Shown: positions 36,844-61,328 of the stretch, piece after piece
How positions within the stretch are numbered: the stretch's first letter is position 1
Layout of the letters: the number at the start of each line of letters is the position of its first letter
NCBI GenBank assembly: GCA_045627625.1
Contig: JAZQOB010000124.1
Coordinates: forward strand, 1,505 to 65,504
Origin: Treponema sp.
GTDB lineage: Bacteria > Spirochaetota > Spirochaetia > Treponematales > Treponemataceae
Length of the DNA stretch: 64,000 nt
Direction of reading: 5' to 3'
Position numbers and translations under genes: made by a program
The notes under the pieces: generated by a model
What the model saw: the letters and a program-made list of their open reading frames with translations, nothing else
What the model was told of the DNA's origin: nothing
Databases searched by the model: none

Positions 36844-37584
36844 ATGCCTAGTAATAAGTACAGTTTCTGGCGTCTGATAGCAGTATTTTGTGCAATTTTT
36901 CTTGTTGTTGCTTACATTGCCTGCTACTTTTTGATGCCGGATAACATGAAAAAAGTTTATTTAATTTTAATGATTCCTACCTTCTTTTTATGGTTGTATT
37001 CTGTCATTCACCAGATGATGTTTCCTCTTGATTTAAGAATCTATGTTATCTGGGTTTTCTATTTTTCCTTCTTTCTTGTTTCTTATGGATTTACAGCATT
37101 AAGTTTGTTTGTTTTCTGTTGTGGCTATGTGCTTGGAATGAAAATTCGTTACATGCAGAAAGGAAAAGTCTGGAAGCTTACAGTGGCTATAATTCTTTAT
37201 ATGGCTTCTTCTCTTTATATTCTTCGTCTGTCCCCATTGGAAGTTATCAACTGTGTTGCAGAATTTTTGATGATGGCAATTGGTATTGTTGCCATGCGTT
37301 TTGTCCTTAAGCATCTTATTGATAAAATTAACAAGGATATTTACAAAGAAATTCCAAAAGAAGATTTAAATTCATATTTTGAGGAATTGAATTTTTCTGA
37401 CCGGGATAAGGCAATGCTGGAAGCAGTACGAAACGGCTGCAAGTATGAAGAAATTGCCATTAATCATAATCTTTCAATCAGTTCTGTAAAAAAACGCCTT
37501 GCTTTCCTTTATAAAAAGCTTGGAGTTACCTGTCAGATTGATTTCTTGATTAAATTCTCCCAAATAAACATTCCTATCGAATAA
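36844..37584 (+). CDS. Polytopic membrane protein with C-terminal LuxR-type HTH
   Basis: About 5-6 hydrophobic segments, then FSDRDKAML..GCKYEEIA...SISSVKKRLAFLYKKLGV. Confidence 0.85.
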   Translation: MPSNKYSFWRLIAVFCAIFLVVAYIACYFLMPDNMKKVYLILMIPTFFLWLYSVIHQMMFPLDLRIYVIWVFYFSFFLVSYGFTALSLFVFCCGYVLGMKIRYMQKGKVWKLTVAIILYMASSLYILRLSPLEVINCVAEFLMMAIGIVAMRFVLKHLIDKINKDIYKEIPKEDLNSYFEELNFSDRDKAMLEAVRNGCKYEEIAINHNLSISSVKKRLAFLYKKLGVTCQIDFLIKFSQINIPIE

Positions 37585-37607
37585 ACCAGACAGACATTCA
37601 GGCGTTC

Positions 37608-37693
37608 CACCTTGGTGTAAGAAAAAAATAACCAAGGTTACCCCTAAATTCCACCAAGGTTCAATTTTCTTTATTCTCTTCTCCTGGTAATAT
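37608..37693 (+). promoter_or_regulatory. Three phased ACC-NN-GGT operators plus extended -10
   Basis: CACCTTGGTG (37608), TAACCAAGGTTA (37629) and ACCAAGGT (37653), centres exactly 22 bp apart; TGgTAATAT at 37685-37693. Confidence 0.7.
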
Positions 37694-37699
37694 TAAGAT

Positions 37700-37790
37700 A
37701 TCAGATAAGTAAATTAGTTATCTGGACTAAGAGAGAGTTTAAAAAAAATTACCCGGAAGGTTTTGGAGAGAGCCTTCCGGGTTTTCTTTT
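37700..37790 (+). ncRNA. Candidate sRNA
   Basis: No ATG-initiated ORF; 5' hairpin cagataa/ttatctg, GAGAGTTTAA, then a terminator. Confidence 0.4.
37751..37790. terminator. Bidirectional terminator
   Basis: acccggaagg/ccttccgggt stem, T-rich 3' side and A run on the 5' side. Confidence 0.8.
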
Positions 37791-37810
37791 TAACTTAGTT
37801 TATTAAAGGT

Positions 37811-50112: not shown

Positions 50113-50892
50113 ATGAAAAAAATTACTTTATTAGTGTTGGCTGTTGTTGCAGTTTTAGGTTTGGCTGGTTGTTCAACAAAAAAAGTTGAAATTAATGGAA
50201 TTTCTGATCTTGCCGGTTTAAAAATTGGTGTTCAGGCTGGTACAACTGGTGAAGCTTGGGTTCAGGATAATGTAAAAGATGTAAAACTTTCATCTTTTAA
50301 ATCTGGAATTGATGCTGCTTTGGCTCTTAAAAATGGTTCTATCGACTGTGTTGTTCTTGATGAACTTCCTGCTGTTGCAATCGTAGATAAAAATGCTGAC
50401 CTTGCAATTATTCGTGACTCTGAATTCACAGAAAACAAAGAAGAATATGCAATTGCTGTAAGAAAAGGAGACGCAACTGTTCTCGCTGCTGTAAACGCAA
50501 CAATCGCTGGTCTTAAGGCAGGGGATGGATATCAGAGTCTTATCGATGCTTATATGCCTGTTGATGGAAATATTGTAATTCCTGTAATTGAAAATGAAGC
50601 AACTTCAGGTGTAATTAAATTGGGAACAAACGCTGCATTCCCTCCATTTGAATATGTAGAAGGAACTGACATTGTTGGTTTTGATATTTCAATGGGTGAA
50701 TATATTGCTAAAGATGCAAATGTAAAACTCGAAGTTGTAGATATGGCTTTTGATAGTCTTATTGCTGCTCTTCAGGCTGGTACAATTGACTTTATTGCTG
50801 CAGGTATGTCTGTTACTGAAGAAAGAAAAGAAAATGTTGATTTCTCTGAACCATATTATGCATCTGAACAGGTTATTATCGTAAGAAAATAA
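50113..50892 (+). CDS. Polar amino acid ABC substrate-binding lipoprotein (circularly permuted)
   Basis: LAGC lipobox; the KIGVQAGTT lobe precedes the GTNAAFPPFE segment. Confidence 0.92.
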   Translation: MKKITLLVLAVVAVLGLAGCSTKKVEINGISDLAGLKIGVQAGTTGEAWVQDNVKDVKLSSFKSGIDAALALKNGSIDCVVLDELPAVAIVDKNADLAIIRDSEFTENKEEYAIAVRKGDATVLAAVNATIAGLKAGDGYQSLIDAYMPVDGNIVIPVIENEATSGVIKLGTNAAFPPFEYVEGTDIVGFDISMGEYIAKDANVKLEVVDMAFDSLIAALQAGTIDFIAAGMSVTEERKENVDFSEPYYASEQVIIVRK

Positions 50893-50962
50893 TTTTTATG
50901 ATATAATTTTAGGACGGTAGTTTTTATGGCTGCCGTCCGATTTTTTTTTAAAGGAAACTGCT

Positions 50963-51628
50963 TTGTTTACTTCTTTTTACAACACAATTATTGCAGGGCA
51001 AAGATATATGCTGATTATTAAGGGTTTAGGAAATACCCTTTTAATTGCTATCTGTGCTCTTCTTATTGGAACAGTTCTTGGCTGTATTTTTGCCTTGATG
51101 AAGGTTTCGGGAAATAAATTCTTAAAATTTATTGCTGATTCATATACTACAATTTTGCGTGGTATTCCCCTTGCAACACAGCTCATGATTTTTTATTTTG
51201 TTATTTTTGCACCTCTTCATCTTCCAAAAATTCTTGTTGCAATTATTTCCTATGGATTAAATTCCGGTGCTTATTGTACTGAAATTTTCAGAGCGGGAAT
51301 TCAAGGGGTTGATAAAGGACAGACTGAAGCTGGACGCTCTCTTGGTTTGAATAAAAATCAAACATTATTTAAGATTGTCCTTCCTCAGGCTGTAAAGGCT
51401 TGTTTGCCAACTTATACTTCGGAATTCATTGTTTTGATTAAGGAAACTTCGGTTGCAAGTTTTATTGCCGTAATGGATATGACAAAAGCGGGAGATATGA
51501 TTCGTAATTCAACTTACAATGCATGGATTCCTCTTATTACCTGTGCTGTAATTTATTTGATTCTTACAGTTGGACTTACAAAATTATTCGGTTTGATTGA
51601 AAAAAGGATGGCTAAAAGTGACAGATAA
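50963..51628 (+). CDS. Amino acid ABC permease
   Basis: RGIPL, EIFRAGI..V.KGQTEA..SLG and LIKETS. Confidence 0.95.
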
Positions 51629-52364
51629 TTTTGAAAATAACTTTATTGAAGTAAAGAACTTGAAAAAAAGTTTTGGTGATCTTCATGTTATTAAAGATCT
51701 TTCAACTGTAATTAAAAAGGGCGAAAAAATTGTAGTTATTGGTCCTTCAGGTTCTGGTAAAAGTACTTTCCTAAGATGTTTGAATCGTCTTGAAGAACCA
51801 AATGGTGGAAAAATTATTTTTGAAGGAATTGATATTACTGCTAAAGAAACAGATATTGATTTGTGCCGTCAGAAAATGGGAATGGTTTTCCAGCATTTTA
51901 ATCTTTTTCCTCATCTGACAGTTATGGAAAATATTACTCTGGCTCCTGTTACTTTAAAATTGAAGACAAAAGAAGAAGCAGAAGCACAGGCAAAGAAATT
52001 GCTTGAACGAGTAGGGCTTGCCGATAAAGCTCAGGTTTATCCATCAACATTGTCTGGAGGACAGAAACAGCGAATTGCCATTGTTCGTTCTCTTGCAATG
52101 AATCCTGATGTAATGCTTTTTGACGAACCAACTTCAGCTTTGGACCCTGAAATGGTAGGTGAAGTTTTGAATGTAATGAAAGATCTGGCAAACGAAGGAA
52201 TGACAATGGTTGTTGTTACTCACGAAATGGGATTTGCCCGGGAAGTTGCTGATCGTGTTATGTTTATGGATGAAGGATATATTGCAGAAGAAGGTAAACC
52301 TGAAGATATTTTTGGAAATCCAAAGTGCGAAAGACTAAAACAGTTCTTAAACTCTGTATTGTAA
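51618..52364 (+). CDS. Amino acid ABC ATP-binding protein
   Basis: [17 protein letters not shown] and [11 protein letters not shown]. Confidence 0.96.
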
Positions 52365-52389: not shown

Positions 52390-52467
52390 TAACCTCGGTT
52401 ATTTTTTCATATACCTTGGTTATTTCTTTCTAAATGCTATTTAATTTTTTTTTATTAGTGTTATTAT
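52390..52467 (+). promoter_or_regulatory. Two phased ACC-NN-GGT operators plus extended -10
   Basis: TAACCTCGGTTA (52390) and ACCTTGGT (52413), centres 21 bp apart; TGtTATTAT at 52459-52467. Confidence 0.6.
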
Positions 52468-52471
52468 GAGG

Positions 52472-52631
52472 ACAGCTTGAATATTAAAGCAAGTTCCCAC
52501 GGGAATAAACTTCTTACTATATCTTGAGGGGTTGCCCTTTAGCATTTAGGACGTCGGAAAGTTTACAAGCTATGAGAGTTTAAGTCTCGTACTGAGATGG
52601 AGAGCCACAATTAATTTTGTGGCTCTTTTTT
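52472..52631 (+). ncRNA. Candidate structured sRNA
   Basis: GC-richer stretch with no meaningful ORF: agcttg/caagct enclosing stem, ttccc/gggaa and aggg/ccct hairpins, GAGAGTTTAA, and terminator agagccacaa/ttgtggctct+T. Confidence 0.5.
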
Positions 52632-53414
52632 TTATTTTGAAATCTGGAACTGCATCAAAAGAATTTTTAATTCATTGATATTTGTAACATTAAAAATTTT
52701 GAAGACTTCTGCGAAATCCTTTTTTACTGTGGAAATACTGATGAAATATTTTTCACTTAAATCTTTGTAAGAAAGGTTTTCGTTGATTGTATCAATAATT
52801 AAATTAATCTGTCGTTCTGTAAGTTTATATTCAGAAAGATTGATTTTGTTTCCTCTTCCAACTTTAAGCAAGTTATTTTCAGATACATTTGCAGGAATAA
52901 TACAGAATTCAGATTTTAAGTACTTATAAATGCATGAATAGAAGGTTGCATAGAAGAATGATGTGAAATATGCAATAAAGGTTTTTGACCAGCCATGAGT
53001 ATACATTAAGGTGATTGCAATAAAGTGGAATATCAGCAGTATATGGGCTTTAACAACAGATTTTTGGGAGAATTGGTCATAAATAATTATCAGGATTATA
53101 GCAGCATAAAAGAAAAAAATTCCTAATTGTTCATATGCTGTAAGAATAGTTAAGAAACTTTCGATGAGAAGAATGGAAACCAAAATTGGCATTTTTGGTT
53201 TTATAATGCTATAAATACCGCCCAACAGACACAAACCATGCATTATTGGCAACAGGATACTAGTAAAAGGGTGTCCGTGGTAGCTTAATGGAATTAGTTC
53301 TAGAATTGAATCTTTATCACCATCAAGTAAAATGCTGGCAAGAAAAGATACAAACAAAAAAACTGATCCAACAGCAGCTATGACTCTCTCCATTCGAGTC
53401 GTAGATGTTTTCAT
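52632..53414 (-). CDS. Polytopic membrane protein with C-terminal LuxR-like HTH
   Basis: About 5-6 TM segments, then KLTERQINLI..LSYKDLS..SISTVKKDFAEVFKIFNV. Confidence 0.8.
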   Translation of the reverse strand: MKTSTTRMERVIAAVGSVFLFVSFLASILLDGDKDSILELIPLSYHGHPFTSILLPIMHGLCLLGGIYSIIKPKMPILVSILLIESFLTILTAYEQLGIFFFYAAIILIIIYDQFSQKSVVKAHILLIFHFIAITLMYTHGWSKTFIAYFTSFFYATFYSCIYKYLKSEFCIIPANVSENNLLKVGRGNKINLSEYKLTERQINLIIDTINENLSYKDLSEKYFISISTVKKDFAEVFKIFNVTNINELKILLMQFQISK

Positions 53415-53514
53415 AATACTAATATTATAGTGGATAATTCTGGAAAAACAAGTTGAAAGTTATTTGCAGGACTTATTGACCGCTTTTTATATTTTTCCTC
53501 TGTCCCCAATGAAT

Positions 53515-55143
53515 CTATTTCAGCTTTTTTGCTATTTCCTGGCAGCAGTTTTCTCCGTCCATAGCACTGGAAACAATTCCTCCTGAATATCCGCTGCCTT
53601 CTCCGGCCGGATAGAGGTTTTTAATTCCGATGGATTCAAAAGTTCCTCTGTCCCTCATGATTCTTACAGGAGTACTTGTTCTGGTTTCGATAGCAATCAT
53701 CAGTGCTTCATCACAAATAAAGCCATGCATGTTTTTATCGATATTCTTAAAGCCTTGAGCGAGTCTGGAACTGATGTGTTTTGGAAGCCATGCGTTTAAA
53801 TTTGATGAAACAAGGCCTGGTGTGTAACTGCTTTCCGGGAGGAACAGAGACAACTTATTATCAAGAAAATCTTTTAATCTTTGAGCAGGTGCCTGCTGTA
53901 AATTTCCATTTGATTTTGCAGTCTGTTCCATGTTAGTTCTGAAAAGAAGTCCTGCAAGTGCTGGACAATTAAGTTTTTCTGCTGCTTTCACAAATTCAGA
54001 AGGAATATCTTCTGGTCTGATTTCAACAACTATAGCTGCATTTGACCATTTTGAATTTCGAGCGGCAGCAGACATTCCATTTACAACAATTTCATCAGGT
54101 CCGGAAGATGAAGGAACAACAAATCCTCCTGGACACATACAGAAAGAATATACACCTCGTTCTTCAACTTGAGTTGTTACTCGATATTCAGCGGTAGGAA
54201 GATTTGCATCGACTTTTCCATGATATTGGATTGCATCAATAAGCTGTCTTGGATGTTCAACACGAACTCCGGCGGCAAAAGTTTTTGCTTCAAGAGTTTC
54301 TGGGCTGTATTTTGCAACTAATTCATAAATATCTGATGCAGAATGCCCTGTTGCAAGAAGAACTGCATCTGCAGTGAAGGAGGTTTCAAAGTTACTCTGT
54401 CCCCCTTGATTCTTTCTAACAGTTTTTACACCAGTAATTTTGATTTTTCCATCTGAATCTTCTTCAGTAATAAAATCAACAACTTTTGTATCAAAGTGAA
54501 TTTCACCACCAAGCTCCAGAATCTTGTCCCTCATATTGTTGATTACTTTTGGAAGTTTGTCTGTTCCGATATGAGGATGAGCATCTGTGAGAATTTTAGG
54601 ATCTGCACCAAAATATGTAAAAATCTGAAGGATCGAATTAATATTTCCTCGCTTATTACTGCGGGTGTAAAGTTTTCCGTCAGAAAAAGTTCCAGCTCCA
54701 CCTTCGCCAAAGCAGTAGTTGCTGTCACTATTAACAATTTTTTGAGTACTGATTAAAGCAATATCTTTTCTTCTCTGTGAAGTTTCGGATCCTCGTTCAA
54801 GGATGATTGGTTTTATTCCTGATTCAAGAAGTTTTAATGCTCCAAAGAGTCCTGCAGGTCCGGCACCAACTATGATTACAGATTTTCCAGATTCAGCTTT
54901 TTTCCATACAGGAAGAGCATCTTCTGTGGATTCTGGAGTTTCACCAATGTAAACTTTATATCGCAAATGGAATTTTTGTCTTCCATGTCGTGCATCAATA
55001 GATTTTTTAAGGAATTTAAGGGTCATTTCATTTGGATGAAATAAATAACCTTTTGATGATAATTCACGAATAATTAATTTTTTGATTAGTCCAATATTTT
55101 TTTCTTCTTCAGGTTTTACGGTAATTGTTATCTCTGTATTCAT
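53515..55143 (-). CDS. FAD-dependent oxidoreductase (uncharacterised COG2509 type)
   Basis: GAGPAG, GEGGAGTFSDGKL, SFCMCPGG and GEGSGYSGGI. Confidence 0.92.
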   Translation of the reverse strand: MNTEITITVKPEEEKNIGLIKKLIIRELSSKGYLFHPNEMTLKFLKKSIDARHGRQKFHLRYKVYIGETPESTEDALPVWKKAESGKSVIIVGAGPAGLFGALKLLESGIKPIILERGSETSQRRKDIALISTQKIVNSDSNYCFGEGGAGTFSDGKLYTRSNKRGNINSILQIFTYFGADPKILTDAHPHIGTDKLPKVINNMRDKILELGGEIHFDTKVVDFITEEDSDGKIKITGVKTVRKNQGGQSNFETSFTADAVLLATGHSASDIYELVAKYSPETLEAKTFAAGVRVEHPRQLIDAIQYHGKVDANLPTAEYRVTTQVEERGVYSFCMCPGGFVVPSSSGPDEIVVNGMSAAARNSKWSNAAIVVEIRPEDIPSEFVKAAEKLNCPALAGLLFRTNMEQTAKSNGNLQQAPAQRLKDFLDNKLSLFLPESSYTPGLVSSNLNAWLPKHISSRLAQGFKNIDKNMHGFICDEALMIAIETRTSTPVRIMRDRGTFESIGIKNLYPAGEGSGYSGGIVSSAMDGENCCQEIAKKLK

Positions 55144-55242: not shown

Positions 55243-55725
55243 ATGAAAAAAATTAGTTTATTTTTAATTGTTTTTGTAATGACAGTTTTTTCTTCTTCAG
55301 TTTTTGCAAAAGAAAAAGTTGTTAAAAAGTATGTTGCTGTAAATTCAGCAGTTTTGAGAGAGAAACCATCAGCATTATCTAACAAGGTTTGCACTTTAGA
55401 TTACGCAACTGAAGTTCATGTAAAAGAAACTAAAAAAGGCTGGCTTTTTGTTGTTTCTAAAAAGAACGAAAATTTGAAAGGTTGGATTCCAAGTTCATCA
55501 CTTTCAGATAAAAAATTGGTTGCTAAAGGAAATAAAACTTCTGTAGATGCTAATGAAATCGCTCTTGCAGGAAAAGGTTTTAATGCCGCTATTGAAAAAA
55601 AATATGCTGCAACTGAACATATTGATTATAGTGGTGTAAACTATATCGAAAGAATCAATGTTTCTGAAGCTGAAGTCATTAATTTCATTTCTTCTGGAAA
55701 ATTAAACGAAGGAGATGATGAATAA
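55243..55725 (+). CDS. Secreted SH3b-domain protein
   Basis: Signal peptide, LREKP..GW...KGWI and EIALAGKGF. Confidence 0.85.
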   Translation: MKKISLFLIVFVMTVFSSSVFAKEKVVKKYVAVNSAVLREKPSALSNKVCTLDYATEVHVKETKKGWLFVVSKKNENLKGWIPSSSLSDKKLVAKGNKTSVDANEIALAGKGFNAAIEKKYAATEHIDYSGVNYIERINVSEAEVINFISSGKLNEGDDE

Positions 55726-56603
55726 TGAAAAAAGTTTTATTGCTTGGTTTAGTTTTATCGGCAGCTTTATTTTTGAATTCCTGTGCATCGCTTACTGCTG
55801 TGTACGAAGGTTGTCAGTCTACATGTAAAGCTTCGAAACCAATTACTCCTGAAGAACAGTATTATATTGGACGATCGGTTGGTGCAACTGTATTGAATAA
55901 GTATTCATTGTATAATGGGGCACCAAACACAGTTTCTTATTTGAATAAAATTTGTTCTGCAATTACTGCATCATCTGAAATGCCATATTTATACAATGGT
56001 TACCATGTTGGTATTATTGATACAGATGAAATCAATGCAATTTCAACACCTGGCGGTCATATCTTAATCAGTCGCGGATTGCTTTCTTGCACTGATTCTG
56101 AAGATGCTGTTGCGGCAGTTATTGCACACGAAATTGCTCATATTCAGTTAGGACATGGTATTGAAGTAATTAAAAAATCACGAAAAGCCGAAGCCAGAGC
56201 AAAAGTTGCATCTGCGGCTGGAGTTGTGATATTGGAAGCTAATGGTGTTGATAACATTTCTTCTGAAGAAGTAAGTAATTTTAATAAAGTAACTTCAAGT
56301 GTTGCAAAAGGAATTACAGAAACTGGTTTTTCTAAGAAAAGTGAATATAAAGCAGATGAAAATGCTTTGATTTTAATGAATAATGCCGGTTATGATCCTC
56401 ACGCCATGATAGATATGCTTACTTTGATTTCGAAAAAAACTGGAAAGAAAAAGAAATCTGGCTGGAGTTCAACTCATCCAAAGCCAAAGGCACGCTTAAA
56501 GAAGGTAAACAAAAAGCTTGCTGAAATGGAATTGCAGGATGAGTTTACATATACAGATAAAGAAAATCGTATGGACCGCTTTGAACGATATATGTCGTTC
56601 TAG
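55725..56603 (+). CDS. M48 family metallopeptidase lipoprotein
   Basis: Lipobox LNSC, INAISTPGG, AHEIAH, EYKAD and THP. Confidence 0.9.
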   Translation: MKKVLLLGLVLSAALFLNSCASLTAVYEGCQSTCKASKPITPEEQYYIGRSVGATVLNKYSLYNGAPNTVSYLNKICSAITASSEMPYLYNGYHVGIIDTDEINAISTPGGHILISRGLLSCTDSEDAVAAVIAHEIAHIQLGHGIEVIKKSRKAEARAKVASAAGVVILEANGVDNISSEEVSNFNKVTSSVAKGITETGFSKKSEYKADENALILMNNAGYDPHAMIDMLTLISKKTGKKKKSGWSSTHPKPKARLKKVNKKLAEMELQDEFTYTDKENRMDRFERYMSF

Positions 56604-56620
56604 TTTTCCTTAAGGTTAGA

Positions 56621-56655
56621 AAAAAAGGATAGTCTCTGGACTATCCTTTTTTTTT
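56621..56655 (+). terminator. Terminator
   Basis: aaaaaaggatagtc/gactatcctttttt stem. Confidence 0.8.
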
Positions 56656-56683
56656 GGTTGGAGTTCGCGGGGGACAGAGGAAA

Positions 56684-56859
56684 AAAACTTGAACCGTCGC
56701 AAAATGAATTGCAGTTGAAGTTAGATTTTTCAGCGACGGTAGGGACAGAGGAAAAATTATAGAAAAACTGCCATAAGTTTTGCAAAGCAAAACTTGAACC
56801 GTCGCAAAATGAATTGCGGTTGAAGCTAGATTTTTCAGCGACGGTAGGGACAGAGGAAA
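56684..56859. repeat. Two 71-bp direct repeats, each a hairpin ending in GGGACAGAGG
   Basis: Copies at 56684-56754 and 56789-56859 differ at 2 positions; internal IR accgtcgc/gcgacggt. Confidence 0.9.
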
Positions 56860-56920
56860 GTTATAAAATCTATCTATTTATCATTGACCTTATATTAAAC
56901 TTCATTATAAAGTAAAAACT

Positions 56921-57403
56921 ATGAGTAAAAATAAGATTTTTTTGATGATTTTGTGTTTAAATTTATTGTCGGTATCAGCTTTTTCCTTTGAACGAGGGGA
57001 AGTAAAAAAATATATTGCTTTAGATCCTGCTCCATTACGAAAAAAGGCATCTGCTATATCAGAACAGGTGGGAAAACTGCCTTATGCTTCAGCTGTAATC
57101 GTTCTTGAAGAAAAAAAGGATTGGGTTCTAGTATGCTCTGTTGAAGATAATAAAATTAAGGGGTGGGTTCCTAAGACCGCCCTCTCAAAAAAGAAACTTA
57201 TTGCAAAAGAGAATACAGGTTCAGTTAATGCAAAAGAAATTGCTTTGGCAGGTAAAGGTTTTAGTTCGACAATTGAAGAATCTTATTCTGCTTCCGCGAA
57301 TGCTGATTTTTCAGATGTAAACATTGTTGAAAAGTATGGTGTTTCTGATTCTGAGATTTGTAATTTTGTGACAGATGGAAAATTGAATGAAGGAGAGAAA
57401 TAA
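56921..57403 (+). CDS. Secreted SH3b-domain protein (paralog)
   Basis: Same motifs as 55243 (KGWV, EIALAGKGF, GKLNEG). Confidence 0.85.
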   Translation: MSKNKIFLMILCLNLLSVSAFSFERGEVKKYIALDPAPLRKKASAISEQVGKLPYASAVIVLEEKKDWVLVCSVEDNKIKGWVPKTALSKKKLIAKENTGSVNAKEIALAGKGFSSTIEESYSASANADFSDVNIVEKYGVSDSEICNFVTDGKLNEGEK

Positions 57404-58323
57404 TGACAAAAATAAGAAGTTTGTGGATTCTTGTTGTCATTTCCTTTTTATTTTCATCTTGTGAAACTTTAGATTTAATTAAAAACTCTGAAGATTATGA
57501 TACAGGAGTTGGCAGGGCTGTAACTCAAAGTAAAAAATCTATCAGTAAAGCAACTGAAAAAATCAGTCCAGAAAATGAATATTATATAGGTCGTTCTGTA
57601 GCGGCTTCAATTCTTTCGAAATATCCTCTCTATAAAAAAGCTCCTGGTACAGTCAGCTATTTGAATAAAATTTGTGGAGCAATTACTTCTGTTTCAGATA
57701 CGCCATATCTATATAAAGGTTATCATGTAGCAATTCTTGATTCAGACGATATTAATGCTATTGCAACTCCTGGAGGTCATATTTTTATTAGTCGCGGTTT
57801 ATTGGAATGCACAGATTCAGAGGATGCTGTTGCGGCGGTTATTGCTCATGAAGTTGCCCATATTCACTTAAAACATAGTATTAAAGCTGTAAAAACCTCG
57901 AGGGCTACAGATGCAATTGTAAAATCTGGTGTTGCGGCTGGTTCTCTGATTGCAGATGCTACTGGAAAAGTTTCAGTTTCTGAAGATGTTGTAGATTCTT
58001 ATAATGAGGTTAGTGGTAAAATAGCAAATACTCTGGTAGATACAGGATTTTCTAAAGCAAATGAATTTGAAGCTGATGGAAAAGCTCTGAAATTGATGAA
58101 TCAAGCAGGTTATGATCCTTATGCTATGTTAGATATGCTGGAACTTATCAAAACAGCTTCTAAAAATTCAAAAACTGGCTGGAGTATGACACATCCAAGC
58201 CCTGATGAACGAATTTTTATGGCAAAGATTATTCTCGCTAATATGGAAGAAAGAGGGGAATTCCTTTATACCGACAAATCAATACGCCAAAAGCGTTTCA
58301 AAAATAATATTGGATTGAAATAA
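57403..58323 (+). CDS. M48 family metallopeptidase lipoprotein (paralog)
   Basis: Lipobox FSSC, INAIATPGG, AHEVAH, EFEAD and THP. Confidence 0.9.
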   Translation: MTKIRSLWILVVISFLFSSCETLDLIKNSEDYDTGVGRAVTQSKKSISKATEKISPENEYYIGRSVAASILSKYPLYKKAPGTVSYLNKICGAITSVSDTPYLYKGYHVAILDSDDINAIATPGGHIFISRGLLECTDSEDAVAAVIAHEVAHIHLKHSIKAVKTSRATDAIVKSGVAAGSLIADATGKVSVSEDVVDSYNEVSGKIANTLVDTGFSKANEFEADGKALKLMNQAGYDPYAMLDMLELIKTASKNSKTGWSMTHPSPDERIFMAKIILANMEERGEFLYTDKSIRQKRFKNNIGLK

Positions 58324-60566: not shown

Positions 60567-61328
60567 TTATGTACAACTCGGATTTGAAAGAAGATAAGAT
60601 TTGACCATTCTTTTTGGCAGGTGCGTTATCCTTGATATTGAATTAATAGAAAATCCATGCTGTCGAATCAATAAAATTTTGGATTTTATAATTTCAGGTG
60701 GTAATTCTTGATTTATAATTGGACTTTTACTATTCAGAATTTCGCAAATTAATTTTGTTTGATTTTCATTTTTTTCAGATGGGCGTAAGGATGGCTCCAT
60801 CCAGGTATCTGTATCATTCTCGTATAAAAACTTGAATAAGTTATTTAAATTTCCAAGTATGTTTATAATTGGTTTTGTATTTACGAAAGAGTGGTTTTTC
60901 TTGATTTCTTTATAATTGCTCCATTTGTACTCATCAAAATTTGAAATACCTGCTTTTTGTGGATTTTTAATTATATATTTAAAAACAGATATGAATGCTT
61001 CGTCGTCTTCAATGGTTTCACTTAGAAAACGCCCTTGAAAAAGATGACCAATTCTATCGTATTTTTTGTTAAAGTATTTTGCATATAGAGAAGAAACAAT
61101 CTGCATAAAAGATGAAATTGTTTTTCCTGGAGCATCAAGTAATAAGTGTATATGATTGCTCATTAGTACATATCCGATTATATCAATTTCATATTTATTT
61201 TTGTATTTTTTCAGTAAATATAAATATTTTTGAAAATCTCCAGAATCATAAAAAATTATTTGCTTATCATTCCCACGATTTATGGCATGATATAATCCTG
61301 TTTGAGAATATTTTCTACATTTTCGCAT
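60567..61328 (-). mobile_element. RAYT-like / IS200-like HUH Y1 transposase with C-terminal HTH
   Basis: YHAINRGN, MSNHIHL (HUH), GHLFQGRF, KYIIKNP (catalytic Tyr) and YKWS. Confidence 0.88.

Follow-up and report, generated by a model that had tools for sequence, protein, structure and literature searches.

The membrane LuxR-type protein p2 likely activates a predicted ~160-nt RNA that would act as a sponge and titrate a second small RNA (sRNA), here called X, as judged from sequence patterns shared among Treponema genomes. The locus is a real, conserved system and lies in a 64,000-nt stretch of a Treponema sp. genome (the window; G000:C124, GC 35%), which also holds a second regulator, p1, with its own operator and RNA (copy 1). 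It offers a named, testable sRNA–sponge pair together with an upstream sensor, in a lineage in which no Hfq was found (six out of six genomes searched).

The element follows an amino-acid ABC operon (50113-52364, + strand) and precedes a convergent regulator gene and then a FAD-dependent oxidoreductase gene (53515-55143, − strand), a common neighbour, upstream of which the RNA is located instead in many relatives. The two phased palindromic operator boxes reported in the initial annotation were confirmed, TAACCTCGGTTA at 52390-52401 and ATACCTTGGTTA at 52411-52422, 21 bp apart (family consensus TAACYNNRGTTA), as was the extended -10 (TG-T-TATTAT), which ends at 52467 and belongs to a predicted sigma70 promoter with a poor -35, TTTAAT (52440-52467, +). 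The predicted ~160-nt noncoding RNA, copy 2, spans 52474-52633 (+), its start being placed from the -10. It contains a small GUUG hairpin (52526-52539, +), which is a degenerate form of the AGC-GUU-GCU mini-hairpin of the family, and ends in an intrinsic terminator (52600-52633, +) that does abut the stop codon of the regulator gene, as had been claimed. The regulator p2 (260 aa) is encoded at 52632-53414 (−), with a TATAAT directly 5′ of its ATG (53412-53429, −) that predicts a leaderless mRNA. Copy 1 comprises p1 (36844-37584, +), three operator boxes at 22-bp spacing (37607-37662) and a predicted ~90-nt RNA (37701-37791, +). These two arrays are the only ones found in the window, and they differ in layout as initially observed: the -10 lies 25 nt past the last box in copy 1 and 39 nt past it in copy 2. 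Four contig sets of one study, possibly the source, matched the copy 2 region with a few substitutions. Elsewhere in the window, 55243-58323 holds four ORFs arranged in tandem as two pairs alike in size (160 aa plus 292-306 aa), the first pair being an SH3 and an M48 peptidase protein and the second 160-aa ORF resembling the first; 60567-61328 (−) encodes a protein that has a Y1_Tnp (IS200-like) domain and a weak HTH match at its C-terminus.

In the structural model of p2 (mean pLDDT 86.6), six membrane helices are followed by a LuxR-type HTH at the C-terminus, which gives p2 the domain make-up of a transmembrane transcription regulator of the LuxR/GerE type. The HTH aligned with VqmA (Z 9.8) and NarL (Z 9.5) at an rmsd of <2 over 66 residues, and the Pfam GerE match was below the cut-off (E 0.055). 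The membrane part resembled ImcA with a Z of only 10.3, too low to be trusted for a helical bundle; no Pfam or NCBIfam family matched this domain at the cut-off, and Foldseek with p2 returned the HTH only, with no match to the membrane domain. Homologues of p2 are present in 81 of the 201 genus genomes and, at E ≤ 1e-8, in 16 of 29 genomes within the family and one of 221 outside it, the relatives coming from records of Treponema or Spirochaetaceae. The two regulators had been called paralogs with a near-identical recognition helix. A second gene of this type does exist, but p1 and p2 share only 25% identity over 51 aa and are set apart by a long separate branch, a placement taken from a quick tree; an SxSTVKK helix is also present in a LuxR protein that is very distant (L252). 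p1 and p2 are different regulator subfamilies with different promoter layouts.

Co-occurrence over 201 genomes and 59 metagenome loci strongly supports the proposal that operator, regulator and RNA form a system. Paired TAACYNNRGTTA boxes, under a strict pair pattern, were found in 56 of the 201 genomes; a p2-family homologue occurs in 54 of these 56, boxes occur in two of the 120 homologue-negative genomes, and 30 of the 31 genomes carrying the closest p2 homologues are box-positive, although the genomes counted are kin and P values therefore overstate the association. Among the 59 metagenome loci, which were picked by protein alone and many of which are close kin, 35 have the array, including 22 of the 27 whose flanks are complete, against 0/59 in the reversed control; it stands before a terminated noncoding stretch in 32 cases and before an ORF in three. 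In 40 of 86 arrays a -35-like word stands 16-17 nt past the final box; 46 arrays have one somewhere in the scanned stretch. The TTTAAT of copy 2 occupies the position of TTGAC in homologues, and a consensus promoter scan missed this promoter. Because the boxes lie upstream of, rather than over, the -35, their placement suggests that the regulator activates rather than represses, with the HTH, at residues ~190-260, as the probable part that binds the boxes.

It had been expected that arrays would be co-located with genes for transmembrane LuxR proteins. They do track the regulator family, but the boxes precede either a terminated 90-230-nt RNA or genes for exported proteins, whose ORFs have signal-peptide or lipoprotein-like N-termini (judged by eye). 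In the sister genus g2 the boxes beside the regulator precede ORFs only, and the arrays read in g2 and at most g6 sites precede lipoprotein- or signal-peptide-type ORFs, with three of nine g6 sites lacking an ORF of at least 80 aa within 400 nt; in both genera the same operator was seen before large lipoprotein-like ORFs (L166-L173, L181, L182-L193). The operator thus predicts a surface-protein regulon that extends into sister genera. A third G000 array (G000:C117:943-2241, L254) has copy 1 geometry and precedes a 404-aa ORF with a lipoprotein-like start, on a contig without a tblastn match to p1 or p2. Orthologues of p1 in G053, G119 and G138 are accompanied by a box and a lipoprotein-like ORF at the place of the copy 1 RNA of G000. 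One genome (G335) has nine operator sites, and an eight-box array before a lipoprotein-like ORF (L096, G011:C9) has near-identical 21-bp repeats as its later boxes. Some genomes (L049, L053, L064, L080) have the RNA cassette in front of pfkA, at a distance from the regulator gene, with its boxes kept. When BLAST was run with the copy 2 region, only the operator was recovered in relatives.

The RNA had been described as a multi-hairpin structured RNA, a description that we reject. With its terminator copy 2 reaches z=−3.49, whereas without it z is −0.78 and 43 of 200 shuffles are as stable; the family consensus (22 sequences) keeps only the terminator and the 3-bp AGC-GUU-GCU hairpin. The suggested Rfam search gave no match to the RNA at the gathering score in the window or in 10 loci, and 14 loci yielded only sub-threshold unrelated matches. 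A riboswitch or T-box was likewise rejected, since neither a T-box nor a glycine riboswitch matched at E ≤ 10 in these 14 loci; Rfam did recognise a genuine glycine riboswitch at another site in G000. A family profile search placed copy 2 at E=2.5 in the window, second to a chance match, and returned nothing meaningful genome-wide.

What recurs in the RNA is GAGAG(UUU). Curation of the 86 arrays, done in part by eye, left 42 RNAs, with arrays of the ORF type, unclear ones, duplicates and L068 dropped. In 29 non-redundant RNAs, from a first set partly hand-curated after the motif had already been seen, GAGAG occurred 93 times versus 16.4 in shuffles and GAGAGTT 39 times versus 2.1, and there was no enrichment of the CsrA-type GGA (99 vs 89) or ANGGA (22 vs 30). 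Each RNA has 0 to 9 GAGAG units, with at least one in 27 of 30 and no exact GAGAG in the other three; the motif is located in the terminator loop in 7/30, and it was present in all 32 automatically classed metagenome RNAs. Copy 2 has two units including one GAGAGTT (P=0.005), and among 106 terminator-ended intergenic regions of G000 only three have at least two units (copy 2, the glycine riboswitch and one other). Of the variants that differ within the five core letters, GGGAGUU alone is enriched (8 vs 0.7), and it is wobble-compatible with the X seed; GAGGGUU, the other wobble variant, shows no enrichment. GAGAGAU is also enriched (8 vs 1.8), though it breaks a seed pair. What is conserved in the RNA is not a fold but a single-stranded motif that is repeated and that complements a second sRNA, and copy 2 is probably an sRNA sponge rather than a structured RNA.

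The coding capacity of the RNA was also considered. As initially stated, copy 2 has no meaningful ORF (longest 19 codons, P=0.48 vs shuffles), and no conserved ORF under purifying selection, the mark of a small-protein gene, was found in it. In one clade, all 30 distinct RNAs have a 35-47-codon ATG ORF that ends in the terminator (null ~21%), and 136 changes produced no stop where about ten were expected; this avoidance of stops points to translation in that clade. It is nevertheless unlikely that the transcript is mainly a small-protein mRNA regulated by X, or a translated leader controlling read-through downstream: the clade ORF has a pN/pS of 0.73 and little codon-position bias, its frame differs between subclades and no SD precedes its ATG, neither of the two copies nor most other clades have such an ORF, and the gene after the copy 2 RNA in the window is convergent. 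Where the ORF occurs (L060, L061, L062, L066, L076, L082, L203, L227 and kin), it traverses the decoy sites, with indels compensated.

The predicted partner sRNA, X, was found by listing intergenic AACTCTC, the motif complement, in G000. It is ~97 nt long and lies outside the window (G000:C98:23589-23685; L255:1290-1386, +), with TTGACG and TAAATT 17 bp apart, a hairpin, the unpaired AUAAACUCUCUCCGAU, another hairpin and a terminator; its seed, AUAAACUCUCUCCG, has p(unpaired) 0.74-1.0. The exact 14-mer seed occurs in 176 of the 201 genus genomes (a control pattern in two), with one to four matches per genome, and 29 of 30 fetched seed loci were the X element (L277 was not), often beside ORFs that we take from their N-termini to be radA-like or serine-acetyltransferase-like. 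Across 24 aligned copies, 98% of cells are paired and 16 of 23 pairs show two-sided change, a value approached by 0/500 shuffles and by no slid control; Rfam gave no match to X in 10 loci. X thus has the sequence features of an anti-SD sRNA: a conserved unpaired seed, covarying stems, a promoter and a terminator. Within the terminator loop of X, a GUU/GUC triloop hairpin shows covariation; such a hairpin is also present in 8/30 family RNAs versus 6/106 controls, with copy 2 failing the strict rule. The leader of a singlet glycine riboswitch (G000:C87:284-376, L253; Rfam 51.8 bits) also bears the AGCGUUGCU mini-hairpin common to the sponge family and X. An SRP RNA lies just downstream of X in G000 (L255:1468-1565).

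The seed was found in 47 of 121 genomes across the family and in 0/18 of genus g2, where an X search gave chance-level DNA matches only; within the genus, all 56 box-positive genomes have it versus 120 of 145 others. Twenty further sites from multi-hit genomes comprised 19 X copies and one perfect 14-nt seed complement over an RBS and ATG (L313, G101:C25:41233-41246), a candidate X target whose ORF presumably encodes a peptidase-containing ABC exporter, to judge from its N-terminus. The X seed reads as an anti-RBS, and in target prediction for one genome the strong sites fall at RBSs. Exported proteins are only slightly over-represented among predicted targets (38/100 vs 317/1204), an excess without significance in the top 50, and the regulon gene on C117 is not a strong predicted target (−9.1, top 18%). 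Since nearly every genome of the genus has X, and many have several copies, it may act there as a central regulator at the post-transcriptional level.

The X seed ranks first of ~5.4 million 16-nt G000 windows for complementarity to 28 foreign RNAs, and the window in second place is the antisense strand of copy 1. The twelve 6-mers of the seed complement include nine of the 14 that were most enriched in the RNAs, a list obtained before X was known, and the motif flanks UCGG and UUUAU match the seed exactly. Seed pairing beats own shuffles at P ≤ 0.05 in 24 of 30 RNAs and does not in the other six. Cofolding with full X gave a family median of −13.6 kcal/mol versus −4.0 for 106 control regions, and copy 2 is the best predicted partner of X among 106 regions (−14.3; next −9.3). 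Its predicted binding sites, all on the + strand, are UCGGAAAGUUUA (52554-52565; −11.4 kcal/mol), AUGAGAGUUU (52572-52581; −11.7) and AUGGAGAG (52597-52604; −10.4), the last overlapping the 5′ arm of the terminator; sites 1 and 2 jointly give the best duplex with the seed, −16.3 (P 0.02). The X-complementary sites of copy 1 (+), at 37731-37740 and, in the terminator loop, 37762-37773, form duplexes of −16.0 and −16.8 (P 0.01 for the latter, its best). One sponge-family RNA (L086, G162:C46:637-650) has a perfect 14-nt seed complement (duplex −25.7). By its sequence, copy 2 would be a stand-alone transcript with its own promoter and terminator, and it is predicted to carry several sites complementary to the seed of an sRNA, as a sponge would.

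It is quite improbable that the RNA instead sequesters a protein that binds purines, either CsrA or the PUR-domain protein DUF3276, the match to X being secondary as both read RBS-like sequence. The number and spacing of GAGAG sites are variable and the motif sits in the terminator loop in the 7/30 above, which would suit a protein ligand; CsrA and DUF3276 are both encoded, and PMC6736767 describes PUR proteins as preferring purine-rich RNA. The lack of GGA and ANGGA enrichment and the exact match of both flanks to the X seed argue against it. For CsrA itself a sponge was rejected, as the GGA-type motif test failed and G000 flagellin leaders carry ordinary GGA. CsrA here adjoins a gene that we take to be fliW. 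Such a CsrA is described as being under FliW and flagellin control (10.1101/2020.07.02.184341; PMC9481697). Also counting against protein titration, neither Hfq nor RRM proteins were found in the six genomes searched.

Copy 2 is a weak family member, with its poor -35, single sites of −10 to −12 kcal/mol, an opening cost of 8.1 and partial occlusion. The family could be sponges while copy 2 is decaying or silent here, with copy 1 and its two −16 sites taking over; the degenerate mini-hairpin would also fit such decay. We consider this very unlikely, given that both boxes, the extended -10, the terminator and the regulator are intact, and that copy 2 is still the best partner of X among the 106 regions with a GAGAG content at P=0.005.

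A direct role of the RNA, by pairing with CUCUC sites of mRNAs or as a mimic of the 16S rRNA 5′ end, is hardly credible: treponemal 16S starts AUCAUGGAGAGUUUGAUC in these genomes and one flaB carries AAACUCUC, but CUCUC is not enriched near starts, the flaB site occurs in 28 of 56 box-positive versus 79 of 145 other genomes, an absence of association on which flaB was rejected as a pairing target, and the motif continues UUUAU as the X complement does, not UUUGAUC. At L154-L165 the 16S rRNA starts AUSAUGGAGAGUUUGAUC, a 5′ end that is thus in part a complement of the X seed, probably incidentally.

Returning to a sponge that titrates X, the mechanism that we infer has transcription, activation, in vivo pairing and the mRNA targets of X as its predicted elements. 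A signal would be sensed in the membrane by the regulator, which would bind the phased palindromes and drive transcription of surface-protein genes and of the sponge. The sponge would offer several GAGAGUUU decoy sites, pair with the X seed, and titrate or destabilise X. Since AUAAACUCUCUCCG is the complement of a GGAGAG RBS, a spacer and the AU of the start codon, X would cover RBSs and repress translation, the predicted target type being an GGAGAGAGUUUAUG start, and sponge expression would release GGAGAG-UUU-type RBSs from it. The operator also stands before exported-protein genes, and the regulator therefore likely acts through two arms, one of coding genes and one of an RNA that relieves repression. 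More tentatively, and with somewhat less than even confidence, we envisage an Hfq-independent spirochaete circuit, in which a genus-wide anti-RBS sRNA is countered by a multi-site sponge recruited by two membrane LuxR subfamilies, the shared GUU triloop is a docking mark for a matchmaker protein, and the sponge is translated up to its terminator in one clade.

Several known systems bear comparison with parts of this one. Like ToxR/CadC, p2 combines a sensor and a DNA-binding domain in one membrane protein, but it has a six-helix N-terminal domain, a C-terminal LuxR HTH and no curated family at the cut-off; transmembrane transcription regulators are described as enriched in Spirochaetota (PMC10269533). 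Multi-hairpin motifs of Treponema, TD-1 and TD-2, are described with 28 and 36 copies in one species (PMC1950547). As with CsrB/RsmZ, a regulator-induced short RNA (here predicted) carries a reiterated purine motif in variable number, but GGA/ANGGA is not enriched and the motif complement is an RNA seed. X resembles RoxS/RsaE, FsrA and LhrC in directing a single-stranded CU-rich seed at the G-rich SD, as PMC10433868 and PMC4132741 describe for them, and, like LhrC in its published description, it is multicopy in some genomes, with Hfq not found here. It differs from them in having a single long seed that is invariant and extends to the start codon, in the covarying GUU/GUC triloop hairpin in its terminator loop and in the lack of an Rfam match. 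The literature searched, of partial coverage, gave no description of the regulator, the operator or either RNA. The closest parallels are RosA of Bacillus subtilis and RsaI of Staphylococcus aureus (~200 nt), each described in PMC8216469 as a stand-alone RNA with its own promoter and terminator, under transcription-factor control and with several purine-rich stretches that complement the pyrimidine-rich seed of an sRNA aimed at the SD. The Treponema RNA belongs to a different phylum, has no Rfam match and has a new partner sRNA; it carries up to nine units of GAGAGUUU instead of the G-runs described for RosA/RsaI, and its predicted activation by a membrane one-component regulator contrasts with the CcpA repression described there.
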